Assembly: GCA_018819405.1 (NCBI GenBank)
Contig: JAHJQF010000001.1
Location: 98,097 to 162,096, forward strand
Length of the DNA: 64,000 nt
From: Patescibacteria group bacterium
GTDB lineage: Bacteria; Patescibacteriota; Patescibacteriia; UBA1558; GWA2-36-10
Direction: 5' to 3'
How positions within the stretch are numbered: the first letter of the stretch is position 1; each line of letters starts with the position of its first letter. The notes below the pieces were generated by a model that had not been told where the DNA came from, did not search any database, and saw nothing but the letters and a program-made list of their open reading frames with translations. This document shows, in pieces, positions 7,203 to 25,848 of the stretch. Position numbers and translations under genes: made by a program.

Positions 7203-7299
7203 AAAACATAATTGTCATAAAAATACAAAAATTATATAATTTATCAAAATATTATCTAATATTAGTCAATAAAATATCTACATAAAATAATAATATTGT

Positions 7300-8055
7300 A
7301 TGAATATAGCTACAACTTTAAAAAATATTGGTTTTGATGATAATAAAGCCAGAGTATATCAGGCTTTATTATCCCTTGGTACTGCACCAGCTGGCGCCAT
7401 CGCCGCCAAATCTGGCATAGTAAGATCTACTGTCTATAAAATCTTGGAAGAGTTGATTAGTGATGGTTTAGCAGAAAATGTTGAGGGCAAGGTCAAAAAA
7501 TTTATTGCTCTACATCCAAGCGCCTTAATAAGAATGCTGGAAAATAAAAAAACAGCCACAGAAAATATTCTGCCAGAATTATTAGGAATATTTACCTCTC
7601 CAAAATTTAAACCTCGCCTGAAATTTTATGAGGGTCTAGATGGCAAGAAAAAAGTTTTTGCAGATATCTTAACTTTACAAAATGACATTGTCTATACTTT
7701 TTCCCCCATCCAAGAAATCCTAACTGTTTTTGGGAAAACCTACAGCAAACATTTTACAGAAAAAAGAGTAAAGAATAAAATTTGGCGCTATGCTTTGCGT
7801 TCAATTGAAACAACAGCCGACAAAACCAAAGAGTGGGAATTTTACGGCTCTGATGAAAAACTGATGCGACAAATCCGCTTTTTGCCGCCAAAAATAAAAT
7901 GCGATACTTTAATTCAAATATACGCTGATAAAATATCAGTCGTTGCCTCACATAATGAAAATTATGCTTTTATTATTGAGAGTAAAGAATTATCAGGCCT
8001 TATGAAACAATTATTTTTGTGGCTTTGGAATACAGCTGATAAACCATCACAATAA
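7300..8055 (+). CDS. TrmB-family winged-HTH transcriptional regulator
   Basis: N-terminal ARVYQALLSLGTAPAGAIAAKSGIVRSTVYKILEELISDGL matches the TrmB HTH pattern. 251 aa. Confidence 0.65.
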   Translation: MNIATTLKNIGFDDNKARVYQALLSLGTAPAGAIAAKSGIVRSTVYKILEELISDGLAENVEGKVKKFIALHPSALIRMLENKKTATENILPELLGIFTSPKFKPRLKFYEGLDGKKKVFADILTLQNDIVYTFSPIQEILTVFGKTYSKHFTEKRVKNKIWRYALRSIETTADKTKEWEFYGSDEKLMRQIRFLPPKIKCDTLIQIYADKISVVASHNENYAFIIESKELSGLMKQLFLWLWNTADKPSQ

Positions 8056-8104
8056 ACTCTTCTGCCAACCACTTATGAGTGCGACCGCCCTATTGGCGAT
8101 ATTT

Positions 8105-8896
8105 CTACAATAATGTATTTTGCCAAGAACCCATCTTGCCGGCCACTTTGGCAGTTTTTATTTTATCCACATCAAATATTCTGACCGCGTCTCTTAGATG
8201 ACAGTGCGCTTTTATCTTATTGCCATCAATTCTTTGAATATCAATTTTTCTGATAGTAGTTTTACCTTTGTCATCCATATATTCAATTTCTAATTGATCA
8301 CCATTTTTCAAGGCAGCTACTATCTTGTCAGGGACTGTCTTACCATTGCCATTGGACCAGCGAGCTACTATTTTTTCTTTGCGCCCAGCATTGGTGTACC
8401 AAATATAGCCATGCTCCTTGCCATAATCATAAACTTCTTTGGTTACCTTCACATCATCCAAACAATATTTTATAAGGCTGTCCCAATCACCTTGCCTATA
8501 ATAAAATATAGCATCCAATCCTGCGCCTGACTTACCATAACCCAAAGTACTCTGAGCAACTGTTTCCAGCTTGAGACGATGCCCAAGAGCAAAGACTACC
8601 TCTTCTAAAATGTCCAGGTGCCCGATAGTGCTCAAATTAAAATCCTTGAAATATGGCTGAAGCACTGTAAAATCAAAACTCTTACTATTAAAACCAATAA
8701 CTAACTCGGTATTTTTGAGTAATTCCAAAAGCTCACCAAATTCCTCTTCTTTGAAAGCCCTGTATCCGTTGCGATTATAAGAATAGACGCCCACCACTGA
8801 TACGCCCAAAAGATGACGATTGTGCTGACCACCCACTTCATCAAAAGTTTTTTTGGTTTCAAGGTCTAATACGATTTTGTCTTTATTTTCTGACAT
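8105..8896 (-). CDS. DEDD-type 3'-5' exonuclease domain protein with a C-terminal extension
   Basis: N-terminal LDLETKK (Exo I D-x-E motif) and ribonuclease H-like spacing. About 90 aa of uncharacterised C-terminal domain. Confidence 0.5.
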   Translation of the reverse strand: MSENKDKIVLDLETKKTFDEVGGQHNRHLLGVSVVGVYSYNRNGYRAFKEEEFGELLELLKNTELVIGFNSKSFDFTVLQPYFKDFNLSTIGHLDILEEVVFALGHRLKLETVAQSTLGYGKSGAGLDAIFYYRQGDWDSLIKYCLDDVKVTKEVYDYGKEHGYIWYTNAGRKEKIVARWSNGNGKTVPDKIVAALKNGDQLEIEYMDDKGKTTIRKIDIQRIDGNKIKAHCHLRDAVRIFDVDKIKTAKVAGKMGSWQNTLL

Positions 8897-8908
8897 AATG
8901 TTTTATTA

Positions 8909-8992
8909 TTGTCATTGCGAGGAGCGAATAAAATGAGCGACGCGGCAATCTAAAAACTTCTAGATTACTTCGCTGCCGCTCGTAATGACGTG
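8909..8992 (-). repeat. ~84-bp hairpin-forming intergenic repeat, copy 2 (transcribed orientation on the minus strand)
   Basis: Reverse complement aligns with 5502-5581 over most of its length. Ends 12 nt before the start of the minus-strand gene 8105..8896. Confidence 0.7.
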
Positions 8993-9019
8993 TTAACATT
9001 ATAACAAATCCTCATATTT

Positions 9020-11044
9020 TTACCAATCATCTACACTAGGCAAAAAACTACCTTCTTCTGGTGTATATTCTACTCCGTCTTCAGCCGCAAAGGTCACGCT
9101 TCTGGCCAAATCATTGTACTGCAAAAGACGACTATCAATATCTACTACAAAAGGGGATGGCTTCATTTGTTTTAATCCGTCATATCTAATCATCGCCAGA
9201 GGATAGGTCAAAAACAAATATTTTTCTGCCCTAGTGACAGCTACATAAAATAGACGACGCTCCTCTTCTCTCTCTTCTTCACTGACTGATAAGGGATGAG
9301 GAAAAGACTGGTCAGTCATAGACATCACAAATACGGCCGGCCATTCCAGGCCTTTGGCCTGATGGACAGTAGATAGTACTACAGCATTTTGATTTTGTTC
9401 TCTATTTTGTTTGGCCGAATAGCTTTCTTGCAGACTTATTTCATTCAAAAATAGTTCCAAAGAATCATACTCAGTGGCAAAAAGAGCCAGCTGCTCCAAA
9501 TCATCCTGACGATATTTATAATCTGTATATTTACTCATCAAATAAAAACTATACTGATTAATAATAATAGCCAACAGCTTACTGAGATTTTCATCTTTGT
9601 GCTGCAATAAGGCCTCAAGAGTGACTATTAATTCGCTCCAGCTCTTAGCAGCTTTACTGGCTATCTCAATTTTAAAATCCAAAATATCTTCCAATTTATC
9701 AAGAGCCGATATTTTTTGATAAATAAGTTGGGCTGTCACCGCACCAATACCTTCGTACATATGAAGCACTCTCATCCAGGACACTTCATCACGAAAATTA
9801 CCCAGCACTTTAAGATATGCCAAGACATCTTTGACGTGAGCTCTTTCAAAAAAACGAAGACCACCTCTCATCTCATAATTTATGCCTCGACGATTGAGCT
9901 CCATTTCTAGAGCCCGACTGTGTGACGAGGCACGAAATAAAACAGCTATATCAGATTCTCTCATACCCCTTTCAATCAACTCCTCTATCTTGTCAGCAAT
10001 ATAACTAGCTTCTTGATTGTGACTCATCAAAGCTACTAGTTCTGGCCGGACATGAGCTTCTTTGACCGCTTTTAGATTTTTGGCAAATTGATAATTATTG
10101 GCCTTTATAATATCGTTGGCCAGATCCAATATCTCCGGTGTAGATCGATAATTTGTTTCTAGTTTATATATTTTGGTATTACTAAATCTATCCGGAAACT
10201 CCAAAATATTTCTGATATCAGCTGCTCGAAAAGAATATATACTCTGAGCATCATCACCGACTGCCAAAATATTTTTGTGTGTTTGAGCCAGATTAAAAAT
10301 AATTTCAGCCTGAATAGTATTGGTATCCTGATACTCATCTACTAATATATAATCCCACTTGTCTTGAAGTTTTTTTGATACTTCTGGATGTTCGGTCATT
10401 GCTTTCCAAAAAATAAGCAAATCATCAAAATCCAAAACATTGGATTCTTTTTTTCGGCGCTGATACTCACCAGCTATTTTTTCAAAAATTTCCAAAAGCG
10501 GCATCCACTCGGGAAATTTGGTTTCCAGGGCTTCTTCAATACTGAGTTTACTGTTGGTGGCAAAGCTGATTGTTTCTTTAAATAGACTAGCTGATGGCTT
10601 ATTTTTTTCTGACATATTAACTAGCATTTCTTTGGATATCATTTTTATCAAACTTTCACTGTCATCACTATCCATTATAGTAAAATTTGGTTCAACTCCT
10701 ATTGCTTTGCCATATATTCTCAAAAGCCTGTTTGCTACACTGTGGAATGTCCCGCCCCAAAGAGGAAATTTAGCATCTTTTCTTATGCCCAAAAGATGCC
10801 TGACTCTAGCTATCATCTCACTGGCTGCTTTATTGGTAAAAGTAAGGAGTAATATCCGAGCCGGATCTACTCCACTATCTACCAGCCAAGCGGCCCGATA
10901 GGTCAGGGTTCTAGTTTTGCCACTACCAGCGCCAGCCAAAACTAAATGAGGCCCTTTACCTGAAGTAACGACCTCGTATTGTTCTTTGTTTAGTTCATTT
11001 TTGAAATCCAATTGACTCATAGTAGAAGTATTATAACTAATCAT
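9020..11044 (-). CDS. uvrD: UvrD/PcrA-family ATP-dependent DNA helicase
   Basis: Walker A GAGSGKTRT. Helicase motif order characteristic of the SF1 UvrD family. 674 aa. Confidence 0.85.
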   Translation of the reverse strand: MISYNTSTMSQLDFKNELNKEQYEVVTSGKGPHLVLAGAGSGKTRTLTYRAAWLVDSGVDPARILLLTFTNKAASEMIARVRHLLGIRKDAKFPLWGGTFHSVANRLLRIYGKAIGVEPNFTIMDSDDSESLIKMISKEMLVNMSEKNKPSASLFKETISFATNSKLSIEEALETKFPEWMPLLEIFEKIAGEYQRRKKESNVLDFDDLLIFWKAMTEHPEVSKKLQDKWDYILVDEYQDTNTIQAEIIFNLAQTHKNILAVGDDAQSIYSFRAADIRNILEFPDRFSNTKIYKLETNYRSTPEILDLANDIIKANNYQFAKNLKAVKEAHVRPELVALMSHNQEASYIADKIEELIERGMRESDIAVLFRASSHSRALEMELNRRGINYEMRGGLRFFERAHVKDVLAYLKVLGNFRDEVSWMRVLHMYEGIGAVTAQLIYQKISALDKLEDILDFKIEIASKAAKSWSELIVTLEALLQHKDENLSKLLAIIINQYSFYLMSKYTDYKYRQDDLEQLALFATEYDSLELFLNEISLQESYSAKQNREQNQNAVVLSTVHQAKGLEWPAVFVMSMTDQSFPHPLSVSEEEREEERRLFYVAVTRAEKYLFLTYPLAMIRYDGLKQMKPSPFVVDIDSRLLQYNDLARSVTFAAEDGVEYTPEEGSFLPSVDDW

Positions 11045-12159: not shown

Positions 12160-13872
12160 TTAATTACTAGCAATTTCCCACAAAGCCTGGCTGTTGTTTT
12201 GATCAACGGCTATTTGTTTTGCCTTCAATTCTTCGGCTTGTGGCCAGCAGAGACTAGCTATCACGTATTTTTGATTTGGCAATTCATTATTAGAGCTATC
12301 AAAGGGAATTAACCGAGATTTTAAAAGCAAAAATTGCCAACGATCAAAATTTCTGGAATAAGTATACGAATCCATAGTAGTAAATATTTTATCCCCTACA
12401 CAGGTACGCCTTGTCATATCATAGTTTAAGCTGTCTATTTTTTCATTAATCACCAGAAACGCTAAATTATTATACTGCTCAAACAAGTTTGTTCTTACGG
12501 CTATATTGTATGAATAATACATGTAATTCATTAATAAATAAAAAAACATCAGCATCAATAAACCATATATAAATCTATTACTAAAAAATCTCCAAAGAAT
12601 AATTATTACTAGTATTGATAGAGAAGTGATCTTAATAATTTTTACACCACCAAAAGTAATTATCCAGGCAAATAATCCTGGTATATTAAATAAAAGCGAA
12701 TGACCACGTAAAAAATCGGCGGCTAGAAAATGCAAAATTATAGCTATACTAGCCAACATGACCAAAACAAAAATATAGTTTCTTAACCTAAAAAACTCTT
12801 TATAGATAGCCCATAAACCAAACAAAATCCACAACAATAAAAATGGATCATTATGTCTACCATAAATCACTATATCTGCTCTACCGCTACTTGCTGAAAA
12901 AAATAAAACTGAAACACCAAAAATTGTTAAAGATAAAAATAAAAACAATGAGAAAAATATATAAAAATTATTAGTCAAAAACTTTTTTTTATCTTTTTTG
13001 AATCCTCTCAAAATATTTTTTACCACATAAAAAAAGGCCAGGGGGAATATTCCAAAACTAGCTATACATAAATATAATACCTGACCAAAAAACTTAGAAA
13101 ATATATATCTTATTTCTGACCAAGAAAAAATCCTAACCAACACATCCAAAATACTATACACATTAGGATCTGTCCAAGCCTTGGCTAAAATATATCCATT
13201 ATAAATATAGGACATGGTAAATAAACCTAAAATAATCAATAGACTGAATATAGTTTTAGGCCAAGCAAATCTTTTTAAAATTGCCAATATAATCAAGATC
13301 ACAACTACAACAAATACCAATGGTAAAGCCCTGAGATGAATAGCATAAAGAGAACCAAAAAATATACTAAAAAATATAAAATTGATATAAGATTCGTTTT
13401 TTAAAACTCGCCAAAATAATACAAAAGATAGGGTCATTATAAATGCAAACAGTGACTCTGAAGTAGCGGTACTAGCATACATAAATAATGATGGATAAAG
13501 GCAAGCCGCAAAAGAAATAAGAGCCGCTATTTTTTTATCAGCTGAAAATATATTCCTCAATAAATAATAAAACAAAAATACCAAAGCGCTAGCTAAAATG
13601 GCATTAAACAACAAGGCTATTTTATAAATCAATATAGCATTAGAAAAAATCAAAAATAATGGGCTGAGTAAAAGCCCATAACCAAAAGTACCGAAAGAAT
13701 GCTCTATAAAATAAAAATTAATGCCCGTGGCAAAATAACGAGCATGAGCCAAAACTATCACTTCGTCAGGAATAACATTTGGAGTATAAAAAGATCTATT
13801 ATAAAAAATATGCAACAAAAGCAAAATTAAAAAAAGGATAAATACTAATCTTTTTTTGAAAAATCCTGACAT
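12160..13872 (-). CDS. GT-C fold integral-membrane glycosyltransferase (family 39/83, ArnT/PMT-like), paralog A
   Basis: More than 10 TM helices. IPDEVI motif in the first extracytoplasmic loop. C-terminal soluble domain ending CWPQAEELKAKQIAVDQNN. Confidence 0.65.
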   Translation of the reverse strand: MSGFFKKRLVFILFLILLLLHIFYNRSFYTPNVIPDEVIVLAHARYFATGINFYFIEHSFGTFGYGLLLSPLFLIFSNAILIYKIALLFNAILASALVFLFYYLLRNIFSADKKIAALISFAACLYPSLFMYASTATSESLFAFIMTLSFVLFWRVLKNESYINFIFFSIFFGSLYAIHLRALPLVFVVVVILIILAILKRFAWPKTIFSLLIILGLFTMSYIYNGYILAKAWTDPNVYSILDVLVRIFSWSEIRYIFSKFFGQVLYLCIASFGIFPLAFFYVVKNILRGFKKDKKKFLTNNFYIFFSLFLFLSLTIFGVSVLFFSASSGRADIVIYGRHNDPFLLLWILFGLWAIYKEFFRLRNYIFVLVMLASIAIILHFLAADFLRGHSLLFNIPGLFAWIITFGGVKIIKITSLSILVIIILWRFFSNRFIYGLLMLMFFYLLMNYMYYSYNIAVRTNLFEQYNNLAFLVINEKIDSLNYDMTRRTCVGDKIFTTMDSYTYSRNFDRWQFLLLKSRLIPFDSSNNELPNQKYVIASLCWPQAEELKAKQIAVDQNNSQALWEIASN

Positions 13873-13896: not shown

Positions 13897-15618
13897 TTAC
13901 TCTACAGTCCACAAAGCCTGGCCATTTTTTTGATCAACGGCTATTTGTTTTGCTGCCAATTCTTCGGCTTGCGGCCAACAAACACTAGAAACTACAAATT
14001 CATTTATTGGTTTTTCATTTTTTTGACTAGAAAAAGGATCAAATCTTGTACCCAACAATAAAAATTGCCAACGATCAAAATTACGAGGATAATCATGCAT
14101 ACCTCTCAAAGCTACAGACACTTTAGCATCACAAACATAATTTGTCATATCATAAGATAAATTTTTAATGCCTTTTTCATCTATTATATAAGCCAAATCA
14201 TTAAAATTACTAAGAGCCACCCTCATAGCCTTCATATAAGAATGATTAATGCTGTTCATTAAGACAAAAATTATAACAATAGCAACCAGGCCATTGTAAA
14301 AACTTTTTTTAAAATAAAAAATAAGCAAAGTAAATAGCGCTATACTAATCAATGAAATAATAAACAATTTTAGGCCTTGTAAAATAATAGCCAGAGGAAA
14401 GACGCCTGAAGTATTAAACATCAATATAGTGTCTTGGGAATAATCTCCTCTATTTATGGATATAATAAACCCTAAAACCAATAGACTAAATAAAGAAAAA
14501 ATTATATTTTTTCTACTAACCTTATTTTTATAAAAAGCTACTATACCTATAGCCAAAAACAATATAAAAAATATCTCATTATGCCGGCCATATATGACTG
14601 CATCCAATCTCTCAGAAAAAACCATAAAAAGACTAGAGCTAAAAAACATTGCTCCCGACAATAAAAATAAAAATATAAGCACGAGCGCTTTATTATCTGC
14701 TAAAATACTCTTGCCTTTGGATTTTATTGAAGTATACAAATAGTTGACCAAATAAAATATTGCCACAAAAAATAGACCAAAACTAGAAATGCCTAGATAT
14801 AAAAATTGCCCCAAGAGATTATAAAAAAATATTTCCAAACCGCGCCAAGTCAAGAGCTTGCTAAAAGTATAGCTAAGAGAATATGGCACCAAGTCCTGCC
14901 AACCCAATAATAATAAATGACTATTTATTTGTCGAGTCACAAAAAACAATGCTAGACAAATAATAATAGACCAAATAACTTTTTTGAGCTCTATTACTCT
15001 TAAAATAGCCAATATAATTAACACCAAAAAAGCGGCTGCTATAAAAGCCAGCGACCTTACATGGACTGTATAAAGGAAGCCGAGATTTAGCCCAAAAAAT
15101 ATAAAATATTTGAGCTCTTTGCGCTCTAAAATTTTCCAAAACAACAAAATTAATAAAACAAATAAAACAAAAGATATAGTCTCTGTAATAACTAAAGAGG
15201 CTTGAGTAAAAATAGCTGGATATAAAGAAGTAACAAAAGCTATTGCCATTGCCTTTTCTTTGGCAATATTAAACAAATCTTTTATAAATAAATATATCAG
15301 CCAAAACAACAAAACACACAATAAACTATTTAAAATCAAGGCCGCTTTGTATACCAAAAATGGATTGGAAAAAAACAATAGTATTGGCGTAATAAATAAA
15401 GGAAAACCAAAACTACCAAAAGCAGCGTTGACATAAGAAAAAGAGTGCCCGCTAAAAAAATAATAAGCATGGCCAAGATATATTGTCTCATCCGGTACTA
15501 CGATTGGCTCGCTAAAACCCCAATTGTAGCCAATATGAAATAAAAATACCAAGATAATATAAATAAATATATTATTTGGTATAACACTTATAGTGTTTTC
15601 TAAACTAAAATTTTTCAC
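13897..15618 (-). CDS. GT-C fold integral-membrane glycosyltransferase, paralog B (tandem duplicate)
   Basis: Same architecture as paralog A. VPDETI motif. C-terminal about 25 aa and about 70 nt of DNA nearly identical to paralog A. Confidence 0.65.
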   Translation of the reverse strand: MKNFSLENTISVIPNNIFIYIILVFLFHIGYNWGFSEPIVVPDETIYLGHAYYFFSGHSFSYVNAAFGSFGFPLFITPILLFFSNPFLVYKAALILNSLLCVLLFWLIYLFIKDLFNIAKEKAMAIAFVTSLYPAIFTQASLVITETISFVLFVLLILLFWKILERKELKYFIFFGLNLGFLYTVHVRSLAFIAAAFLVLIILAILRVIELKKVIWSIIICLALFFVTRQINSHLLLLGWQDLVPYSLSYTFSKLLTWRGLEIFFYNLLGQFLYLGISSFGLFFVAIFYLVNYLYTSIKSKGKSILADNKALVLIFLFLLSGAMFFSSSLFMVFSERLDAVIYGRHNEIFFILFLAIGIVAFYKNKVSRKNIIFSLFSLLVLGFIISINRGDYSQDTILMFNTSGVFPLAIILQGLKLFIISLISIALFTLLIFYFKKSFYNGLVAIVIIFVLMNSINHSYMKAMRVALSNFNDLAYIIDEKGIKNLSYDMTNYVCDAKVSVALRGMHDYPRNFDRWQFLLLGTRFDPFSSQKNEKPINEFVVSSVCWPQAEELAAKQIAVDQKNGQALWTVE

Positions 15619-16711: not shown

Positions 16712-17765
16712 CCACAATTCTGGAAGGATTAATTGCCTCGTCTTTCGGGTATAATTTATAGCTGTAGTAATTACTTACAAAATCTTCTACAGTTTTTTTA
16801 TTATAGCCAGAAAGCACAGCATTTTGTCCCAAGCCTTCTTGCCTCTCAGTTTTTTGTCTCAATATCAAACAAGGCTTACCTAGATAAAAACTCTCCTCTT
16901 GATTGCTCCCACCATCAGTAATAATAAATTCGGCCTTATCCATTAATTTTATAAAATCAAAATAATCATACCGTGGCCTGAGTTCTATATTTTTATTATT
17001 TTTTAACCTGTTATAAAAATCAAATTTTCTTAATTTATCCTTAGTAGGCGGGTGTAATATAAACAAAAGCTTTATACTATCAGCTGTATCCTCTATCAGC
17101 TCAATCAAAGACAAAAATCTATTTTTTTTGAAAACATTTTCAAAACGATGCAATGATACAATGGCAAATTTTTCCTGAGGGATATCCAGATTTTGTTTAG
17201 TATCGCTATCTATAGCTAATTTGACTGAATCATAAAGAGTATTATAAATTGTATCTATTTTTTTACCTTTATATTTTTCTAAATTGCCCATCGCCCAAGC
17301 TCCTGGACAAAAATAATAATCAGTTAAGTGAAAAGTAAGATACCTAAATATTTCTTCTGGAAAAGGGTGAAAAAAATTAAAAGATCTAAGACCTGATTCT
17401 AAATGGCTATTTTTTAATCCAGCCAGCTTGGCCAATATTGACCCCAAGAGAGTAGTAAAAGTATCACCATGATTGATGACAATTCCATTTTTATCATCTT
17501 TAAATATTTCTTTTTTGTTTTTCAAAAATTTAAAAATAATTTTGCCGCCCCATGCAATCATCTGACTGACTTTGACAATGTCTGGACCTGAATATAAAAC
17601 AATGTCTGGTTTTTTGACTCCAAAATTTTCCATCAGATCATCCATAGTCTCTTTATGCTGACCACTGATAATAAAATTGTAATCAACGCCCCTGTCTTGA
17701 AGTTCTTTCATCAAGGGAGCCACTTTGATAAGCTGGGCTTTTGTGCCTATTATGATATGAATCAT
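16683..17765 (-). CDS. UDP-N-acetylglucosamine 2-epimerase-like (WecB family)
   Basis: IHIIIGTKAQLIKVAPLMKEL and ITDGGSNQEES resemble the WecB N- and C-terminal motifs. Convergent 29-nt overlap with the GT2 gene. Confidence 0.65.
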   Translation of the reverse strand: MIHIIIGTKAQLIKVAPLMKELQDRGVDYNFIISGQHKETMDDLMENFGVKKPDIVLYSGPDIVKVSQMIAWGGKIIFKFLKNKKEIFKDDKNGIVINHGDTFTTLLGSILAKLAGLKNSHLESGLRSFNFFHPFPEEIFRYLTFHLTDYYFCPGAWAMGNLEKYKGKKIDTIYNTLYDSVKLAIDSDTKQNLDIPQEKFAIVSLHRFENVFKKNRFLSLIELIEDTADSIKLLFILHPPTKDKLRKFDFYNRLKNNKNIELRPRYDYFDFIKLMDKAEFIITDGGSNQEESFYLGKPCLILRQKTERQEGLGQNAVLSGYNKKTVEDFVSNYYSYKLYPKDEAINPSRIVANFLIQNFL

Positions 17766-17827
17766 GATATTACTTTATCATATAGTAAAATATCTGCAAA
17801 TATCTTTTTAATCCTGAACCAATATGT

Positions 17828-17836
17828 GCTATAATG
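17828..17836 (+). promoter_or_regulatory. Extended -10 promoter element (TGCTATAAT) for the candidate sRNA
   Basis: A TGnTATAAT match sits about 6 nt upstream of the inverted-repeat region that begins at 17842. Confidence 0.35.
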
Positions 17837-17837
17837 T

Positions 17838-18040
17838 ATTTGTAGTAGTTCATTGTTTTACTTCTTTAGCAAATAGTAGCTACACTAAAATCGCACAAAT
17901 GCACAAAGTGCTAGAAATAAAAACAAAACAATCTTAGTGAACTACTACCTTGCTCTGAAGACAATTAACAACTGAATATGGAAAACGTGGAAGTTTTCTA
18001 AAACTCCGTCGACATTGGGGCCGACGGAGTTTATTTTTGC
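17838..18040 (+). ncRNA. Candidate small structured RNA (promoter to terminator, about 200 nt, no ORF)
   Basis: 5' GTAGTAGTTCA (17842-17852) pairs with TGAACTACTAC (17938-17948). Ends at the hairpin AACTCCGTCG...CGACGGAGTT followed by TATTTTT (18001-18038). No plausible ORF lies on this strand. Confidence 0.35.
18001..18038 (+). terminator. Rho-independent terminator
   Basis: 10-bp stem AACTCCGTCG/CGACGGAGTT with a GC-rich loop, followed by TTATTTTT. Confidence 0.6.
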
Positions 18041-18194
18041 CAATTTTGCCTATGAACGAAGTGAGTAGTTACAAAATTGAGCACCTCGCGCAAACGGGGT
18101 AAAGCCAAGTAGCTTAAATATATATTCTTGACATACAATGAAAATAATGATAAAAATTGTTTATAAGACAATAAAATTAGTTTGATAGACAAAT

Positions 18195-18330
18195 TCACCC
18201 CGTTAAATAAATTCAATTTAATGGGTGATAATAGAAACCATATAGTATATTTTTAAAAAACATACAATAAACTAGCTAATTAATTGAATTTAAAATTTAA
18301 GAAACTTAAATTTTATTTAACGGGGTAAAT
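18195..18330. repeat. CCCCGTTAAATAAA inverted-repeat pair, copy b
   Basis: Left arm TTCACCCCGTTAAATAAA (18195-18212). Right arm TTTTATTTAACGGGGTAAAT (18311-18330) ends 1 nt before the ATG at 18331. Confidence 0.7.
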
Positions 18331-20208
18331 ATGAAAAATCTATTTAAATCACAAACTTCTTATGAAATCCTTGATTTATTTACCAAAAACCCAGATAAAA
18401 GTTGGTATATGGCTCAACTATCCAAAGAGCTTAGCAAAGATCCAGCCAATATCACCCGCGAGCTGGACAAGCTAACAAAAAACAATCTTGTCCTAGCCAA
18501 AAATCAAGCTAATAAAAAATACTACTCTCTCAACCATGACTATCGCTCTTTCAAAGAGTTGATAGACCTCTTTGAAAAAAACCGCAGCGCTGATTTCAAA
18601 GATAAATTCAATAGCCCCTGGCTTTTGGCTGAAGATATCCCAAATATGTGCCCGTTTTTTTCTCAAATATGGATGAATTGTTTTGTTGATGAATTTGCCA
18701 ACCCCAGCGGCCGCGCCTATCAAAAAGTAGTGGCTATTTTTAAGGATTATCACCTTTGGTTTTATTATGATAAAAAGGACGCCTATCAAGTAGGGCAAAA
18801 TATAGTAGACAAATTCCAAAAAGACCCCCGGTTTATGCAAGAGGTCAATCAAAATATTATAAAACTGTCTGATAAATTAACAGCTTATTGTCAAAAACTG
18901 CCCCAGGATAATCTGGAAAAATTATCAAACAAAAAACTGTGGGATTATTACAAAAAACATGAAGATGTCCATACTGACTACTATCGCTATGGGTGGCTCC
19001 CAGTAGCAGCTGATATGTTTGGCAATAATCTGACCGAAACCGGCAAAGAAATTTTAAGAAATATGGGCGTCAGCGATGATAATATGGCCGAATATCTTAT
19101 TTTACTTACCGAGCCAGCCAAGCCGTCACTCATCAAAATAGAAGAAGATGAAATAAAACAAATGGCCGCTGATATACAAGCTGACCTCAGACAATTTAAA
19201 TTATTTAAAGAGCTTTTCAAAAAATTCAAAGAGGAAGATGTAAAGCTCTTTGGCTTATATACTCACTCTCCTGAATATGAGGCCAAATTTGAAGAAAGAG
19301 TCAGAGAGCTTATCAAAAAAATTGATCCTAAGATTTCTAAAAAACTAGAAGATCACTACCAAAAATATTTTTATACAAAATTTTTATTTACTGAAGAGCA
19401 AGGTGTATATAATTTTGAACACTACCTAAAAAAACTTGTCCGACTGGTCAATAATGAGACAAACATCGGCAAAACCCTAAAAGATGAAGTCACGGCTACA
19501 AAAATAGAGCTAAAAAAAAGAGACAGCTTGATAAAAAAACTAAAACTATCATCTCAGCATAAAATATTTTTTGACCAGTGGGGTGAATTTATGATTACGA
19601 AAATATACCGTCGCTATGCCCAGCTTTTTGCCATCTATCGAATGGTGCCTATTATAGAACAAATAGGCAAAAGACTTGGTCTCAGCATCAAAGAAACAAA
19701 ATTCATGACAAGCGAAGAACTATACAACGCTTTATTTAAAAATAAATTAAACAAAGAAGAAATAAAAAAAAGAATACCTTTTTCCGTATATTATACCGAC
19801 AAAAATGAACACGCCTTTTATACTGGGCGCATGGCCAAACAAGCGACTGAAATAATCCAGACTGAAAATATAGAAGAAGTCTCTGAAATCAAAGGCCAGT
19901 GCGGAGCCCGTGGTCATGCCAAAGGACCGGTCAAAATAATAAATGTAATAGCTGACATGCAAAAAATGCAAGCCGGCGACATCCTCGTTTCTATCTCCAC
20001 CCAACCCGACCTTTTACCGGCCATGAAAAAAGCCGCCGCTTTCGTAACAGAACAAGGTGGGGTCACCTCTCACGCTGCCATAGTTGCCCGTGAATTAAAA
20101 ACGCCTTGTGTGATTGCTACCAAAATCGCTACCAAAGTATTAAAAGACGGCGACTTGGTAGAAGTAGATGCTGATAAGGGTATTGTAAAGATTTTGAATA
20201 AGAAATAA
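18331..20208 (+). CDS. Winged-HTH / PEP-utilizing-enzyme mobile (swivel) domain fusion protein
   Basis: The N-terminus SYEILDLFTKNPDKSWYMAQLSKELSKDPANITRELDKL reads as a wHTH. The C-terminus GGVTSHAAIVARELKTPCVIATK carries the phosphohistidine-domain motif of PEP synthase / PPDK / rifampin phosphotransferase. 625 aa. Confidence 0.6.
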   Translation: MKNLFKSQTSYEILDLFTKNPDKSWYMAQLSKELSKDPANITRELDKLTKNNLVLAKNQANKKYYSLNHDYRSFKELIDLFEKNRSADFKDKFNSPWLLAEDIPNMCPFFSQIWMNCFVDEFANPSGRAYQKVVAIFKDYHLWFYYDKKDAYQVGQNIVDKFQKDPRFMQEVNQNIIKLSDKLTAYCQKLPQDNLEKLSNKKLWDYYKKHEDVHTDYYRYGWLPVAADMFGNNLTETGKEILRNMGVSDDNMAEYLILLTEPAKPSLIKIEEDEIKQMAADIQADLRQFKLFKELFKKFKEEDVKLFGLYTHSPEYEAKFEERVRELIKKIDPKISKKLEDHYQKYFYTKFLFTEEQGVYNFEHYLKKLVRLVNNETNIGKTLKDEVTATKIELKKRDSLIKKLKLSSQHKIFFDQWGEFMITKIYRRYAQLFAIYRMVPIIEQIGKRLGLSIKETKFMTSEELYNALFKNKLNKEEIKKRIPFSVYYTDKNEHAFYTGRMAKQATEIIQTENIEEVSEIKGQCGARGHAKGPVKIINVIADMQKMQAGDILVSISTQPDLLPAMKKAAAFVTEQGGVTSHAAIVARELKTPCVIATKIATKVLKDGDLVEVDADKGIVKILNKK

Positions 20209-20310
20209 CCAGATCCCGCTATACAGCGGGATGCTCGATTTTGCATCTAGTCGCTTCGCTCTAGACAAAATCGGCAGAAGTAGATGCTGATAAGGGTATT
20301 GTAAAGATTT
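20159..20310 (+). repeat. 36-bp direct repeat (AGAAGTAGATGCTGATAAGGGTATTGTAAAGATTTT) flanking an ~80-bp hairpin-rich insert
   Basis: Copy 1 at 20159-20194 encodes the C-terminus of the 18331..20208 gene. An identical copy lies at 20275-20310. The insert contains the ATCCCGCT-ATAC-AGCGGGAT hairpin (20213-20232) and CGATTTTG...CAAAATCG. Confidence 0.8.
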
Positions 20311-20318
20311 TAAAAAAA

Positions 20319-21356
20319 TCATAGCCTATTTTTAGTAATTATCATGGCGTCACCAAAAGAAAAAAATCTATATTTTTTGGCAACAGCTTTTTGATAAGTT
20401 TTGATTATTAGTTCACGACTAGCCAAAGCTGAGACCATAAATAGTAACGAGCTCTTGGGCAAATGAAAATTAGTAATCAAATCATCTGCAAACTTATATT
20501 TGTAACCAGGATAAATATAAATATCTACCCATTTAACCCCAGGGGTTAAATCACCTGTTTTGTCTGAAAAAGCCTCTAGCGTCCGGGCGCTGGTGGTGCC
20601 AACTGCTATTATATTTTTGCCTGTTTTTTTTAGTTTGTTTAATGCTTCAGCTGTCTTTTTATCAATCCTGGCCCACTCATGGTGTATTTTGTGTTTTTCT
20701 ATCTCCTCTGCTTCCACTGGAGCAAAGGTGCCAAGTCCAACATGCAAAGTAACTTTAAAAATCTTAATGCCTTTTTTTGACAGTTGTTTTAAAACACGAT
20801 CGGTAAAATGCAATCCAGCAGTCGGAGCCGCTGCCGAGCCAATACTACGAGCATAAATAGTCTGATAATCTTTTTTAATTTTTTGACTGTCTTTGGTCTT
20901 GATATAAGGCGGCAGCGGCGTATGACCAATATTATCAATTATCTTGTCCAATTCTTTACCTGATTTATTAAATTTGACTTGTTTAGTCTTGCCATCTATA
21001 TCTTTAATAATTTTGGCTTCTAATTTTTTATCAAAATAAATAGCATCTCCTACTTTTAGATTACGGCCACCAATCATGGCTAGCCAACCCGACGGGTTGA
21101 CCCGATCTATAAGTAATATTTCTACTTTACCACCGGTACTTTTATGCCCATAAAGACGGGCTGGAAATACCTTTGTTTCATTGACCACCAAAACATCATT
21201 GCTAGTCAAAATGTCTGGCAAATCATAAAAATGCTTGTGGGCAATTTTTTGTTTAGCGCTATCTAAAATCAAAAGGCGCGAATGATCGCGTGGTTTTATT
21301 TGTTTTTGAGCTATTAGCTCATGAGGTAAATTGTAGTCAAATAATTTTATATTCAT
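20319..21356 (-). CDS. queA: S-adenosylmethionine:tRNA ribosyltransferase-isomerase
   Basis: The N-terminus MNIKLFDYNLPHELIAQ is a QueA signature. The track ORF extends spuriously upstream, so the start is placed at the ATG at 21356. Confidence 0.85.
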   Translation of the reverse strand: MNIKLFDYNLPHELIAQKQIKPRDHSRLLILDSAKQKIAHKHFYDLPDILTSNDVLVVNETKVFPARLYGHKSTGGKVEILLIDRVNPSGWLAMIGGRNLKVGDAIYFDKKLEAKIIKDIDGKTKQVKFNKSGKELDKIIDNIGHTPLPPYIKTKDSQKIKKDYQTIYARSIGSAAAPTAGLHFTDRVLKQLSKKGIKIFKVTLHVGLGTFAPVEAEEIEKHKIHHEWARIDKKTAEALNKLKKTGKNIIAVGTTSARTLEAFSDKTGDLTPGVKWVDIYIYPGYKYKFADDLITNFHLPKSSLLFMVSALASRELIIKTYQKAVAKKYRFFSFGDAMIITKNRL

Positions 21357-21376
21357 AAATATTATAAAATAGAGTG

Positions 21377-21404
21377 GCCGGCTTCGCCTTCGGCGAAGCC
21401 GGCA
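21377..21404 (-). terminator. Perfect GC-rich hairpin (GCCGGCTTCGCC-TTCG-GGCGAAGCCGGC) after the small island ORF
   Basis: 12-bp perfect stem with a tetraloop immediately 3' of the minus-strand ORF 21409..21672. The U-tract is weak. Confidence 0.5.
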
Positions 21405-21408
21405 AGAA

Positions 21409-21672
21409 CTATTTGATCCTATGCTCGTTGAGACGAAAATAGTGTGGTTTCTGTACTGAGTAGCTACCATTGAAAAACAACAATGGTAGCCAAAAAAATA
21501 CTACAAAAAGAAACACTCCAATGCTAGAGCCAATAATACAAAAAGCATCACTTGGCGGCCCATGTTGATGCCTAGCACGATTGAGCAGAGACACGATGTC
21601 ACTGCTGTAAAGCATTCCGTAACAACAGCCAATGGTGGCGTACACAAGGGTTACCCAGAAGTACCAACTCAT
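21409..21672 (-). CDS. Small hydrophobic membrane protein on a GC-rich segment (island 3)
   Basis: 87 aa with two predicted TM segments and about 48% GC. A perfect AAGGAGG sits 5 nt upstream of the ATG. Confidence 0.45.
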   Translation of the reverse strand: MSWYFWVTLVYATIGCCYGMLYSSDIVSLLNRARHQHGPPSDAFCIIGSSIGVFLFVVFFWLPLLFFNGSYSVQKPHYFRLNEHRIK

Positions 21673-21758
21673 GACCTTCCTCCTTTTTCGAGCCTAGTTC
21701 AAACCAAGGTGTCAGAGAACATAATCAAATAAAGATTATCTTAATAACAATATATTTG

Positions 21759-22295
21759 TCAATTTCTTTTTGAATAAACACAGCCACAATAATCCTGACG
21801 GTAAAATCCTTCTTCTTTGGACATTTTGCTTGATATCTTAAAACCGTCTTTCTTTTTCCAATCTCGGTCCAAAAATTCTATGCCCAGTTGATTGGCTAGA
21901 GACTGCCCAATCATACTAATTTTGGCGTAGTCCTTGTGAGGAGAAATAGATAAGACTGTAGCAAAAGTATCATAGCCTTCGGCTTTAGCTTTGGTCGCTG
22001 TTTTAGATAATCTGAGATCAAAACATGCATCACAACGTCTGCCGCGCTCCGGTTCGTTTTCTAACCCTTTGGTTTTTTTGAACCATTCTGAGCTATTATA
22101 TTCGCCTTCTTCAAATTTTAGACCAATTTTTTTGGCATAATTTTTCATTTCATCACGACGCAAATTGTATTCTTTGCGGGGATGAATATTTGGGTCATAA
22201 AAAAATATAGTTAGATCATACTCATGAGCTAACTGATCCAAAACATATATTGAACATGACGCACAACAAGTGTGCAGAAGTAATTTCGGTCTCAT
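21759..22295 (-). CDS. queH: Epoxyqueuosine reductase QueH (DUF208)
   Basis: LLLHTCCASCS N-terminal cysteine motif and C-terminal CGC, typical of DUF208/QueH. Adjacent to queA. Confidence 0.75.
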   Translation of the reverse strand: MRPKLLLHTCCASCSIYVLDQLAHEYDLTIFFYDPNIHPRKEYNLRRDEMKNYAKKIGLKFEEGEYNSSEWFKKTKGLENEPERGRRCDACFDLRLSKTATKAKAEGYDTFATVLSISPHKDYAKISMIGQSLANQLGIEFLDRDWKKKDGFKISSKMSKEEGFYRQDYCGCVYSKRN

Positions 22296-22296
22296 A

Positions 22297-23313
22297 CTAA
22301 AACATTTTTTTCTGACTGTCTTTTTTTTCTTTGCCTAAATACTCATAGGTCTTATCTGTAGCAATCCTGCCTTGCGAAGTACGAGAAAGTAAACCCAATT
22401 GCATCAAATAAGGCTCAAATATTTCTTCTATTGTCCCGGCTTCTTCCTGAAGAGACGCGGCCAATGTACCCAAACCTACTGGTCCACCAGAAAAATTTTC
22501 TACCAATACTGTAAGTAACCTTCTATCCAAATCGTCTAGACCATACTCATCAATGGCCATCATGTCCAAAGCTCTTCTGGTCAAATCACGAGATATTTTA
22601 CCGTCTGCTTTGACCTGAGCATAATCCCTGACACGTTTGAGTACTCTATTGGCAATACGAGGCGTGGCTCGACTACGCTTGGCTATTTCTAGTCTAGCCT
22701 GATCTTCAATTGGCACAGCCAAAATATCAGCTGCCCGACTGACAATATCGGCTATTTCATCCTCATTATAAAAATTGAGCCTAAAAGTCGCCCCAAATCT
22801 ATCTCTAAGTGGTGAAGAAATAAGATTATATCTAGTAGTGGCTCCAATTAAAGTAAAACGCGGCAAATCCAGCCTGAGCATCTGAGCTGAAGGACCCTTG
22901 CCCAATACAATATCTAATGCAAAATCTTCCATAGCTGGATAGAGTATCTCTTCGATGGTCTTGTTGAGACGGTGTATCTCATCAATAAATAAAATATCGC
23001 CATCTTGCAGATTGGTAATAATAGCTGCCAAATCTCCGGCTTTAGAAATGGCCGGTCCGGAAGTAACCTTGATACCTGTGCCCATTTCTTTGGCAATAAT
23101 ATGAGCGAGTGTAGTTTTACCTAAGCCCGGTGGTCCAAAAAGAAGCACATGGTCAATGGCTTCTTTCCTTTTTTTGGCAGCGCTAAGTAATACATCTAGA
23201 TTTTCTTTGACCTGACGCTGACCCACATACTCTCTCAGAGTCTGCGGACGAAGCGTCAAATCCCAAGTACGGTCTTCATTTTGTTCTTTGGCTGATGTAA
23301 TTCGCTCTTCCAT
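22297..23313 (-). CDS. ruvB: Holliday junction branch migration helicase RuvB
   Basis: [12 protein letters not shown]...[17 protein letters not shown]+ motifs. 338 aa. Confidence 0.95.
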
Positions 23314-23322
23314 TTCAAAATT

Positions 23323-25848
23323 TTAAATAAAAGTCACAGACGATACTTTATCATCACCGTCTTTAAATCTCATAAGTCTCACTCCCTGAGTAGCTCGTCC
23401 CAAAATACTAACAGATTTGATAGCTAGCCTTATTACCTGTCCTTTACGAGATATAATAATCATATCTTCATCCTCCATATTTTTGGAAACAATCTTAGCA
23501 CTGGCAACCTCACCTGTCTTGGCTGTCACCTGAGCAGTCTTGATGCCACTACCACCACGTCCTTGCACCTTGTAAGCGCCCAAAGCCGTACGCTTGCCAA
23601 AACCATGTACAGTAACTACCAAAAGCTGTTCGTCTTTACTGGCTTTACCATCAGCAATAATATCGGCACCAATCATAGCATCATCCTTCTTGATTTTGAT
23701 GCCTCTTACTCCAGAAGCACTACGACCCATAGACCGGACTGATTTCTCTTTAAATCTTATAGACTGCCCTCTGGCCGTAACCAACATAATATCATCATTA
23801 CCAGATGACGGTTTGACCCAATCAAGCACATCATCTTTTTTCAAGGTAATAGCAATCAGACCACTTCTTCTGACATGTGTAAATTGTTCTACCTCTGTAC
23901 GCTTGATCACGCCGTTACGAGTGACCATGACAAAATATTTGAAAGCCTTGAAGTCCTCGCTCTGTAAAATACTTGAGACTTTTTCCTCTGGAGACAATTG
24001 TAAAAAGTTGACAATGTTTTGACCTTTGGAAGTCCTAGATTGTTGCGGTACTTCATAAGCCTTGAGTTGAAAGACGCGTCCTCGAGTGGTAAAAAACATC
24101 AAATCAGAGTGAGTAGAAGTAGTAAAAAATTCTTCTACTTCATCTTGCTCTTTGGTAGTAAGACCCATCACGCCTTTGCCGCCACGACTCTGCGTGCGGA
24201 ATGTCTCCGGAGCTAGTCTCTTTATATAACCATCTTTGGTCATCATAATTACAGTGGACTCATTGGGTATAAGGTCCTTGGTAGTCATTTTGCCAATAGC
24301 TGATTTTATTACTTTTGTCTTTCTAGGATCAGCATATTTAGCTTTGATTTCGGCCAACTCATCTTTGATAATACTCAAAACTTTGGACTTACTCTTAAGT
24401 ATTGCTTCCAAATCTTTGATAATCTTCAATTTTTCTTTTAGTTCGTCTAATATTTTTTGACGCTCTAGATTGGCTAAACTCTGAAGCTTCATTTCTAGGA
24501 TAGCTACTGATTGTCTCTCAGTCAGTTTGAATTTTTTCATCAAATTAACCTTGGCAATTTCTTTATCTTTAGAGGCGCGGATAGTTTTGATAACCGCATC
24601 AATTTTATCCAAAGCTTTTTTAAGTCCTTCCAAGATATGGGCTCTGTCTTTGGCTTTATCCAAATCAAACTGAGTACGCCTGACAACCACTTCTTGACGA
24701 TGTTTTATATACTCTTCCAAAATTGACTGTAGAGTCAAAACTCTAGGCTGTATACCATCCACCAAAGCCAGCATATTTACATGAAACTTTTCCTGCAATT
24801 GAGTATGCTTATAAAGATTGTTCAAAATCTTGTTTGGATAAGAATCTTTTTTGAGTTCAATGACAATCCTGACTCCGTCTTTATCTGATTCGTCACGCAA
24901 ATCTTTGACACCATCTATTTTTTTATCTTTAACTAACTGAGCTATCTTTTCCAACAAAGTGGCTTTATTGACCTGAAAAGGAATAGAGGAAATAATGATT
25001 CTGTATTGTCCTACTTTGTCTTCCACAATCTCTGCTTCTCCACGCGTTACAATACCACCACGGCCAGTAGCATAAGCTGTCTTGATGTCATCTATATCAT
25101 AGATTACACCGCCCGTTGGAAAATCAGGGCCTTTTACAATTTCAATCAGCTCATCAATAGTAACATTTGGTTTATCAATAATGAGATTTATAGCCTCAAT
25201 CAATTCCCCTAGATTGTGTGGCGGGATATTGGTAGCCATACCAACCGCAATACCAGTTGTACCATTTAAAAGAAGATTTGGTAATTTAGCTGGCAAGACT
25301 CTTGGCTCTTTCTGAGAACCATCATAGTTTGGTATGAAGTCCACTGTGTTTTTATCTATATCAAAAAGCAATTCTTCAGCTAGACCCTGCAATTTAGCCT
25401 CGGTATAACGCATAGCAGCTGCTCCGTCACCATCCATTGAGCCGAAGTTTCCTTGGCCATTGACCAATGTATAACGCATAGAAAAATCCTGAGCCATTCT
25501 GACCATAGAATCATAAACCGCTGCATCACCATGCGGATGATATTTACCTAGTACTTCACCGACTACGGTAGCTGATTTTCTGAATTTGGCAGTATGACGG
25601 AGCCCTAAGGTCCACATAGCATAAAGTATACGTCGATGTACTGGTTTTAGACCATCTCGGACATCTGGCAAAGCGCGAGAAACAATAACACTCATAGCAT
25701 AGTCAATATATGAGCTTTGCATCTCTTCTACAATAGACAAGGGCTCTACTCGACCACGATTGTTTATCAGTATATCCTGACTAGCTTTTGTTTCTTTGCT
25801 GTCTTGAGCTTTATTAGTTGATTTTTTAATTAATTTCTTTTTTGCCAT
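23323..25848 (-). CDS. gyrA: DNA gyrase subunit A
   Basis: [27 protein letters not shown], with the active-site Tyr region. A GyrA-box-like QSRGGKG lies in the C-terminal beta-pinwheel. 841 aa. Confidence 0.9.

Follow-up and report, generated by a model that had tools for sequence, protein, structure and literature searches.

A 64,000-nucleotide stretch of a Patescibacteria contig (hereafter the window, about 6% of the genome; the contig measures 1,035,872 bp, or 1.04 Mb) was found to contain a gene, KKH39_00570, whose 3′-end is present twice. The gene encodes a C-terminal phosphoenolpyruvate (PEP)-utilizer (phosphohistidine swivel) domain, and the DNA between the two copies of its end contains a 63-nucleotide structured element, which we have designated E. 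E belongs to a conserved family of structured elements, previously undescribed, that is present or absent among orthologous loci and recurs, together with a second copy of the gene end, at the 3′-ends of other genes of the PEP-utilizer family in Patescibacteria metagenomes. The explanation that we favour, at a probability of about 0.5, is that the 3′-end of the gene was displaced, guided by homology, by a module carrying E.

The duplicated gene end

The host gene is an open reading frame (ORF) of 625 codons at 18331-20208 on the plus strand. Residues 547-617 of its product correspond to Pfam PF00391, the protein is a 100% match to P0001, and its swivel domain aligned with solved PEP synthase chains as far as residue 619-622; relatives are named 'swiveling domain / ArsR family regulator' in one source. 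Downstream, the gene converges on queA (20319-21356, minus strand; Pfam PF02547, E-value 6.6e-127). The window contains exactly two copies of the 36-mer AGAAGTAGATGCTGATAAGGGTATTGTAAAGATTTT, at 20160-20195 and at 20276-20311. These two exact copies uphold the perfect duplication described in an earlier note on this DNA, which had placed it one base too low. Repeats in 20 locally shuffled windows reached no more than 16 bp, and the second-longest short-range direct repeat of the window was 24 bp.

The first copy (c1, plus strand) is coding and specifies EVDADKGIVKIL, the last strand or strands of the swivel domain. It is followed by a new tail of 17 nucleotides (GAATAAGAAATAACCAG, 20196-20212, plus strand), which completes a leucine codon and then provides NKK, a stop codon and four more nucleotides (CCAG). 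The last 15 codons of the host gene take in c1 and this tail, and the ORF ends ...EVDADKGIVKIL-NKK*. The second copy (c2, plus strand) is a displaced and now non-coding relic of the ancestral gene end. Read in its own frame it gives ...EVDADKGIVKIL-KKS*, with the TAG at 20322-20324; both C-terminal readings had been proposed in the earlier note and were borne out by translation. The frame of c2 is blocked upstream by a TAG four codons ahead of the repeat, and its relic tail (AAAAAAATCATAG, 20312-20324, plus strand) overlaps the queA stop codon (20319-21), such that the relic reading frame would overlap queA by 6 nucleotides. The copies are spaced by 116 nucleotides and are thus in different frames. 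The similarity reaches weakly past the 36-bp core (54 nucleotides at 87%), and the stop codon has the same register in both copies; the new tail matches the relic tail at 9/15 positions (P ~0.02), the shared register of the stop having P ~0.05. The junction between the insert and c2 reads ...CAAAATCGGC joined to AGAAGTAGATGC.

Two ways in which c2 could still be translated were rejected. Joining c1 to c2 by read-through or bypass would be out of frame (116 nucleotides) and would duplicate a strand. A small ORF running through E into c2 (MLDFAANR...KDGD...RKI*) was discounted as a protein, as its window version is out of frame and indels in E shift the frame.

The closest orthologues of the host protein showed 75-78% protein identity. 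In two of these contexts (L001 and L003/L004) the orthologous gene has a single, uninterrupted end and converges on queA with a 6-bp overlap, as c2 would give. Its end, ...AAA TCA TAA, aligned with the ...AAA TCA TAG of c2, and the alignment continued into the flank beyond. Because these orthologues end at the position of c2 with the same queA overlap, c2 is the ancestral gene end and 116 bp have been added upstream of it. The earlier note had called the downstream copy probably ancestral and had proposed a look for an uninterrupted single copy in related genomes. It had also raised the case of relatives that share the duplicated arrangement; the closest orthologues lack it, whereas distant family members show an analogous arrangement around E. 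In L002 and L005 another gene lies between the host orthologue and queA, and a search of these two loci for the relic revealed none. In the window, c2 and the relic tail have probably persisted owing to their overlap with the queA stop codon.

The genome is metagenome-derived, and the repeat could in principle have arisen by an error of assembly or curation that placed two strain variants in series. A search of metagenome contigs with the host protein gave no match, and the queA product as query led to a contig in the Logan assembly of run SRR6514730, which is 100% identical to window 20282-24356. The 36-bp repeat exceeds the k of Logan, and the contig breaks there, as such an error would allow. 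However, the contig end lies exactly 30 nucleotides (k-1 for k=31) into c2, which is where a real repeat predicts a break, because reads in which the repeat continues to the right in two ways force a branch in a 31-mer graph. The break supports a real repeat, although the tandem order of the copies is not proven by the break alone. Assemblers with k greater than 36 must have had the insert-to-repeat junction in their reads, and the arrangement of gene end, E and second gene end was found on dozens of independently assembled contigs from other samples. We consider an artefact barely credible.

Structure and conservation of E

E (20213-20275, plus strand) forms the core of the 80-bp insert between the two repeats and comprises two hairpins. 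Hairpin 1 (ATCCCGCT-ATAC-AGCGGGAT, 20213-20232, plus strand) has a perfect 8-bp stem and a loop of 4 nucleotides. Hairpin 2 (20234-20275, plus strand) has an outer stem of 2+8 bp, an inner stem of 4 bp and an apical stem of 2 bp, with internal loops, and includes an imperfect palindrome at 20236-20273. The perfect hairpin and the second palindrome of the earlier note correspond to these features. Across the family E is 63-66 nucleotides long, the stem of hairpin 1 is 8 bp, and the stems of hairpin 2 are 2+9, 4 and 2 bp with small internal loops between them; hairpin 2 is closed by the first two bases of the 3-nucleotide linker region after hairpin 1, which pair with the terminal GC. In the 66-nucleotide versions the loop of hairpin 1 contains the TAG stop codon of the host gene.

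Comparison of the insert with 80 fetched loci that encode relatives of the host protein revealed an exact 19-mer, spanning the junction of the two hairpins, in L038 and L062. The protein tails ...KLSRR and ...KLFRH and a spurious 34-amino-acid ORF through E then served as search handles for further loci. Clusters of the 34-amino-acid ORF are on record from 6 and 29 contigs, and the handle searches led to L108, which has two copies of E, and to L110-L124. The family thus comprises seven distinct 3′-end sequences and two upstream copies, of which only the seven were used to train the covariance model R1.

The window copy of E scored 66-73 bits with the covariance model (E-value ~1e-12), and its predicted RNA fold has an energy of -27.4 kcal/mol (z = -5.1); fold energies across the family have z-scores of -4 to -6 against shuffles on either strand. 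With the nine copies aligned by fitting to the model, pairing holds for 97.8% of cells, and 9/25 pairs show double compensatory changes. This level of pairing and covariation was reached by 0/500 shuffles, and controls with slid partners gave 32-47% pairing. Nucleotide identity is 91-95% (60-63 of 66 nucleotides) among L038, L062, L108 and the L110 and L122 groups; the hosts of these 66-nucleotide copies share 33% protein identity, and the host in the window shares 29% with the L038 host. Because the structure is conserved across such divergent hosts, selection is implied, either for the host or for the propagation of E.

Every copy of E lies within ~300 nucleotides of a PEP-utilizer family gene, and the covariance model revealed no further copies in the ~1.17 Mb made up by the window and the fetched loci. 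The 64 kb of the window contain two copies, both adjoining the same gene. The search for further copies that the earlier note had proposed was negative for exact matches, as no 12-mer of the insert occurs elsewhere in the window, and positive at the level of structure, where the model detected an inverted copy at 18039-18100. As 10- and 11-mers of the insert were also at chance frequency, local template switching or tandem duplication was rejected as its source. Readings of the insert as a diversity-generating retroelement, as a clustered regularly interspaced short palindromic repeat (CRISPR)-like sequence or as tRNA-derived were not supported by any features.

Rfam 15 contained no relevant match to window 19900-20600 at E-values up to 10, to L062, L108 and L110 at E-values up to 1, or to the whole window at the gathering threshold. 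Among viral contigs an exact 38-mer and a 19-mer had no match, and five matches to a degenerate pattern were not elements. The 20-mer of the inner part of hairpin 2 in the window had no match in metagenome contigs, its source included; with respect to that collection the window variant stands alone.

Hairpin 1 was rejected as a marker of a widespread element. Its exact 20-mer gave 20 matches in species-representative genomes, mostly in Bacteroidota terminators and local tandem repeats and once in a tRNA-like context in Patescibacteria (L016); these score no more than 22 bits with the covariance model, L016 giving no match, and represent convergent simple hairpins unrelated to E. The L016 locus (Patescibacteria JAKJDW010000004.1, 7330-7020, minus strand) contains a tRNA-Arg(tct) gene and, 28 nucleotides further on, a degenerate copy of it without the 5′ acceptor strand. 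In this copy the anticodon arm is replaced exactly by ATCCCGCTATACAGCGGGAT and the T-loop has a 24-nucleotide hairpin insert; two more 'GGCTAG-TCCCGC...GCGGGAT' units, also unrelated to E by covariance model, lie nearby among tRNA genes. In two Flavobacteriia loci (L008, ~6250-6460, and L021, 5600-5860) the 20-nucleotide hairpin 1 sequence occurs in tandem units of ~100 nucleotides ('...ATCCCGCTATACAGCGGGAT TAGTTCAACTTACA...'). These hairpin-bearing units, seen in several Bacteroidota genomes, are a local repeat family unrelated to E.

No stable hairpins other than those of E lie between the host gene and queA, the convergent pair whose members overlap in relatives, and in a terminator scan of the window hairpin 1 scored on both strands. 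E is not a canonical intrinsic (Rho-independent) terminator, because across the family it is followed on the sense strand by an A-run rather than a U-run.

E and a second gene end recur in the PEP-utilizer family

In L038 and L062 a 66-nucleotide E sits right at the 3′-end of a gene of the PEP-utilizer family, and in L108 E and c2 follow each of two tandem paralogues, the two units being nearly identical. The gene sequence upstream of E breaks off at a homologous leucine codon (...K-I/K-L) in each of the 3′ copies. E follows this codon directly in the 66-nucleotide versions, whereas in the window 17 nucleotides (NKK-stop-CCAG) intervene, a tail without counterpart in those versions. The 3′ terminus of E is always ...AAAATCGGC (...GGC), followed by an A-rich run that opens a second copy, in the same sense, of the gene's terminal coding segment.

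The point at which the coding sequence is re-entered varies. The second copy starts from EVD in the window, where its 36 nucleotides are identical to c1, and from KDGD in L062, L108 and L110-L124, where it measures 54-57 nucleotides; in L062 and L108, c1 and c2 are identical at 42-43/56 positions. Only a few nucleotides, AAAAAATTAA, are present in L038, the one 3′-end context without a second gene-end copy, although its orthologue L108-E2 has a full copy. Differences among the c2 copies are mostly synonymous (5 vs 1-2).

The closest relative of the L038 host, in L107, has a different structured insert of ~55 nucleotides after its stop codon, and this insert is followed by a relic, VDANKGIVKKL*, that overlaps the ATG of a Sua5/YrdC gene; insert and relic together lie at 2184-2275. 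L107 shows a second kind of 3′-end displacement in the family, and such displacement is therefore recurrent. Tandem paralogues with long identical patches of 3′-end DNA were found in L050, L051, L060, L065, L068 and L082. The patches reach 72/74 nucleotides in L068 and ~60 nucleotides in L060, L065 has four such gene ends in 14 kb, and frequent gene conversion is implied.

Three further observations were made at these loci. In L096 (1684-2687) a PEP-utilizer paralogue is split by a frameshift at an A-run into a 273-amino-acid ORF and a 70-amino-acid ORF with the swivel domain, and is either a pseudogene or an assembly error. L062 contains a complete group II intron (7213-9119; Rfam D1-D4 135 bits, D5-D6 46.6 bits) with a 444-amino-acid ORF, which ends a few bases from the start codon (9116) of the E-bearing host gene. 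In L114, L116 and L118 a DDE transposase gene (positions 1-904, minus strand; DDE_Tnp_1 and related) is immediately upstream of the 471-amino-acid L110-type host.

Breakpoints at E in co-existing strains

Two related series of groundwater metagenomes contained contigs of an L110 type and of an L121/L122 type. An alignment of the two types showed 100% identity over at least 1300 nucleotides downstream of E, 92% within E and ~70-76% upstream, where they carry different PEP-utilizer genes. A third arrangement, L120, comes from the same sample as L118 (L110-type); it keeps 26 nucleotides of c1, E, c2 and the downstream genes and has unrelated sequence further upstream. Since the contigs are identical downstream and carry different genes upstream, E is the boundary between variable and constant segments in co-existing strains, and the breakpoint in these contigs falls inside E.

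These haplotypes, which differ by a whole upstream gene, also fit a replacement of the whole gene or a deleted paralogue. The gene would then have arrived or been duplicated as a module with its own tail and with E as its native 3′ flank, perhaps as a 2.2-kb unit bracketed by the inverted upstream copy (E′, described below) and E, and the resident would have been reduced to its last 49 nucleotides. Tandem paralogues are common in the family, L108 being organised as gene-E-c2-gene-E-c2; the window gene is bracketed by E′ on the minus strand and E on the plus strand; the c2 differences are mostly synonymous, as for a former coding end; and the gene order upstream of the window gene is unlike that of relatives. 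However, the promoter region from E′ to the start codon and the unit upstream of it are orthologous to those of relatives that lack E′, L005 has E′ without the downstream E, and the divergence of the window gene from its orthologues is uniform along its length. The 36-bp identity would also be unexpected for copies that evolved separately, unless they were homogenised. We regard replacement of the whole gene as quite improbable.

An inverted copy upstream of the host gene

The inverted copy, E′ (18039-18100, minus strand), is located in the 5′ intergenic region of the same host gene and fits exactly between the TTGACA promoter box of this gene and the T-run of the terminator that precedes it. 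It scored 44.5 bits with R1 and 64.7 bits with R2; its hairpin 1 is degenerate and its hairpin 2 intact, with compensatory changes. An orthologue of E′ in L005 (2323-2386, minus strand), also outside the training set, scored 54.2 bits with R1. In L001, L002 and L003 the site is empty, the terminator T-run being directly followed by the TTGACA box.

Read on its own strand, E′ is preceded by 27 extra nucleotides (18101-18127, minus strand) that the empty sites lack. They correspond to 45 nucleotides in L005 that form a second hairpin-2-like arm; in L005 a head-to-head doublet has the central hairpin in common. Neither upstream insertion (E′ plus 27 or 45 nucleotides) has a long duplication. The five orthologous loci are about equally distant from one another, and the presence pattern of E′ may reflect either one gain or an ancestral state with losses.

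The terminator that sets the upstream insertion site belongs to a conserved promoter-to-terminator unit of ~200 nucleotides (17828-18038, plus strand), which is delimited by a GCTATAAT promoter box and a strong terminator (18001-18032 and a T-run) and was present upstream of the host-gene orthologue in 5/5 orthologous loci. RNAalifold showed compensatory changes at 14/39 predicted pairs, and Rfam 15 gave no relevant match to window 17700-18340 at E-values up to 1; the unit is a candidate new small RNA. Window 4097-4114 and 18312-18329 form an 18-nucleotide inverted match, the second arm of which is just upstream of the host gene start codon.

Origin of the arrangement

From these patterns we infer the recombination mechanism, the donor, the strand or molecule in which the structure forms, and any function. 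In the displacement that we favour, a 116-bp block with E as its core would have been added at the extreme 3′-end of the swivel-domain gene, with homology-guided recombination copying it from a different gene end that carries E; candidate routes are gene conversion, gap repair and homology-facilitated illegitimate recombination. The conserved coding stretch for the last swivel strand (...EVDADKGIVKIL) would have provided the left homology, and an A-rich run within the resident end of the gene would mark the right-hand join. In this way the host gene would retain an intact C-terminal strand (c1) and gain a three-residue tail, and the resident end (c2 and KKS-stop) would be shifted 116 bp downstream. 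The window junction GGC|AGAAG may derive from the common GGC|AAAAGA... by an 18-nucleotide deletion between TCGGCA and TTGGTA. E itself may be kept as a pair of hairpins in a single strand, either RNA or single-stranded DNA, and may act as a junction for exchange among genes of the PEP-utilizer family.

Displacement is suggested by the left junction, which is seamless and in frame, by the near identity of the units of E and c2 after the two L108 paralogues, and by the population breakpoints at E. The differences between c1 and c2 in L062 and L108 fit versions from a donor and a recipient better than a newly made target duplication. A foreign coding tract was looked for at the 3′-end of the window gene, upstream of the repeat, and none was seen; a crossover at the repeat's right edge would fit this. 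Recombination at these gene ends appears to be common, since paralogues often share identical 3′-end patches.

Several points weigh against displacement. The upstream copies, in the window and in L005, are at a site without homology to a gene 3′-end and have no long duplication, and homology-guided copying alone fails to explain them. The 3′ boundary of E is base-exact in every context, always at an A-run, and looks enzyme-defined rather than the product of illegitimate joins. A donor with the window's version of E was not found, and the perfect identity over 36 bp (75% in L062 and L108) needs either a very recent event or homogenisation of c1 and c2. On the structural side, the pairing figures come from an alignment fitted to the model, only a few lineages contribute the deep compensatory changes independently (the window copy, both upstream copies and a group of close relatives), and the G-U evidence on strandedness is mixed, with two changes for sense and one for antisense.

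Alternatively, and with a lower likelihood, E may be a non-autonomous mobile element inserted at T-run|A-run sites by an enzyme acting in trans, such as a single-strand HUH/Y1-type transposase or the machinery of target-primed reverse transcription of an E-containing RNA. The 3′ end would be joined precisely and the 5′ end variably, and the long, variable 'target duplication' would stem from widely staggered nicks or from upstream RNA copied together with E. The clean filled and empty sites at the non-homologous upstream location, exactly at the edge of the terminator T-run, agree with this, as do the invariant 3′ terminus ...GGC, always followed by AAAAR or AGAAG, and the 0, 17, 27 or 45 extra nucleotides on the 5′ side. 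At the repeat's right edge the ancestral sequence of the window, GATTTT|AAAAAAA, shows the same T-run|A-run context, and L038 resembles a simple insertion between ...AAGTT and AAAAAATTAA. Moreover, the hairpin structure is conserved, as in elements recognised by hairpin-binding transposases, and a group II intron with a reverse transcriptase adjoins the L062 host and a DDE transposase the L110-type host.

Transposition is made doubtful by the distribution of E, all copies being by one gene family and none elsewhere in the scanned ~1.17 Mb, unlike a dispersing transposon. E is without terminal inverted repeats and without a target duplication of fixed length, and c1 and c2, which differ by 25% in L062 and L108, are not fresh target duplications there. 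The window, which covers 6% of the genome, has no relatives of the L062 reverse transcriptase or of the L114 DDE transposase and no group II intron, and viral contigs gave no match to E. The suggestion of the earlier note that a small structured element had been inserted with duplication of its target captures the essence of the locus, as the core of the insert belongs to a conserved structured family that behaves as an insertion.

Comparison with known systems

Homology-guided displacement of a gene end has precedents in Rhs/contact-dependent inhibition (CDI) and type VI secretion system (T6SS) effector loci, where C-terminal displacement has been proposed to occur via homology-facilitated illegitimate recombination (Kirchberger et al. 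2017, PMC5361080); displacement of rhs C-termini is attributed in that paper to Jackson et al. 2009 (PMC2935791). As in those loci, a conserved coding stretch would anchor the incoming DNA, which supplies a new 3′-end and leaves the old end orphaned downstream; arrays can build up, and arrangements differ between strains. An orphaned end of this sort is present in the window (c1 and c2), in L062 and L108 (42-43/56) and in L107 (its insert and VDANKGIVKKL*). Unlike in those loci, the displaced piece is only 12-19 codons long and specifies essentially the same peptide, and its displacement therefore adds no functional diversity. Three residues, NKK vs KKS, distinguish the two tips. No immunity gene or linked small gene is present, and every incoming module brings along one and the same conserved structured element, the ends of which are exact to the base.

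Like an integron attC site, E is an imperfect hairpin structure of ~60-70 nucleotides at the 3′-end of each gene, its structure is conserved more than its sequence, and it marks junctions between exchangeable genes (L108; the L110, L120 and L122 haplotypes). In contrast to attC, its boundaries (left AAGTT|ATCCCGC, right CAAAATCGGC|AAAA) do not fit RYYYAAC ... GTTRRRY core sites, and no integrase Pfam families were found among the called genes of L108 and L110-L124, which are short contigs. The cassettes also all belong to one gene family, and E is followed by a copy of the terminal coding segment, which is never so in attC. It is a speculative and rather unlikely extension that E and the trailing gene-end copy are where recombination takes place in a so far unrecognised system, of cassette exchange or of RNA-templated insertion, that shuffles, replaces and amplifies Patescibacteria swivel-domain genes. 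Such a system would be either a counterpart of integron attC restricted to one gene family or a bacterial retro-insertion, resembling that of short interspersed nuclear elements (SINEs), at T-run|A-run sites, with the duplicated end as a built-in homology arm through which E could reach any member of the family.

E resembles repetitive extragenic palindromic (REP)/REPIN and IS200/IS605-derived elements in being a small non-coding hairpin element at gene ends without a short fixed target duplication. It differs in its very low copy number and its restriction to one gene family, both within the ~1.17 Mb scanned, and no conserved flanking tetranucleotide or 5′ flank motif was seen. IS200/IS605-derived elements insert 3′ of a fixed tetra- or pentanucleotide and make no duplication; the 5′ flanks of E end ..GTT, ..TTTT, ..CTTT, ..GTTG and ..CCAG, which are T-rich and vary in motif, and the 3′ sites carry duplications. 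No RAYT or TnpA gene turned up, a systematic search for one not having been made. A miniature inverted-repeat transposable element was rejected, since neither end of E (ATCCCGC... and ...AAAATCGGC) is an inverted repeat of the other and the flanking duplication is ~0 nucleotides in L038 and at the upstream sites, 36 nucleotides in the window and 54-57 nucleotides at 75% in L062 and L108. A variable repeat/template repeat pair of a diversity-generating retroelement was likewise rejected; such pairs span ~100 nucleotides or more and differ at adenines, the repeat here is 36 nucleotides long and identical, and the window contains neither an L062-type reverse transcriptase nor its intron RNA.

In Escherichia coli, phage 21 and the element e14 integrate at the 3′-end of icd and supply a substitute gene end. 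The window is similar in that a gene end is duplicated: the gene is completed by the copy upstream, and what lies downstream is a relic. The earlier note had offered, as an alternative, the attachment-site (att) footprint of an excised integrative element, that is, an attL/attR scar at the gene 3′-end from which nearly all of the element was later deleted. The perfect repeat core, its diverging flanks and a substitute end whose stop codon keeps the register would suit such a scar. Unlike at icd, there is no integrase and no element body; only 80 bp separate the repeats, and 63 of them are a complete E, a conserved element of 63-66 nucleotides known from other, independent contexts and not a random remnant. 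None of 83 related loci was found to have, at this site, an integrase or a larger insert between duplicated gene ends, second copies being the ends of tandem paralogues. L002 and L005, which have genes inserted before queA, lack the relic, and the length of the duplicated segment varies by context (~0, 36 or 54-57 nucleotides). An att scar is very improbable, and this part of the earlier note did not hold.

Other features of the window

A perfect 12-bp GC-rich hairpin (GCCGGCTTCGCC-TTC-GGCGAAGCCGGC, 21377-21403) lies in the queH-queA intergenic region of this 36% GC genome. It falls inside an overlong queA ORF call, the true queA start being near 21356. A 155-bp identical direct repeat (12197-12351 and 13928-14082) is found in the C-terminal coding regions of tandem paralogous membrane-protein genes (12160-13872 and 13897-15618, minus strand; 570 and 573 amino acids) and looks like homogenisation between paralogues. 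An exact direct repeat of 24 bp, with copies 45 nucleotides apart, is located at 55354-55377 and 55399-55422.

Significance

The arrangement unites known kinds of feature, small hairpin elements and 3′-end displacement; the E family itself is undescribed and gene-family-specific. In the window, the event turned two overlapping convergent genes into genes 116 bp apart with stable hairpins between them. The family also explains short 'orphan' gene-end fragments that are annotated as spurious 34-amino-acid ORFs on at least 35 contigs, and, with a working covariance model, E is a new candidate structured RNA or DNA motif for curation. A literature search pairing Patescibacteria with PEP-utilizing enzymes returned no paper.

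Patescibacteria (the candidate phyla radiation) have tiny genomes and are thought to have few mobile or repetitive elements. E is bound to one expanded gene family in them, that of proteins with a C-terminal phosphohistidine swivel domain, often encoded in tandem arrays, and it offers a testable route by which paralogues may be exchanged in reduced genomes.

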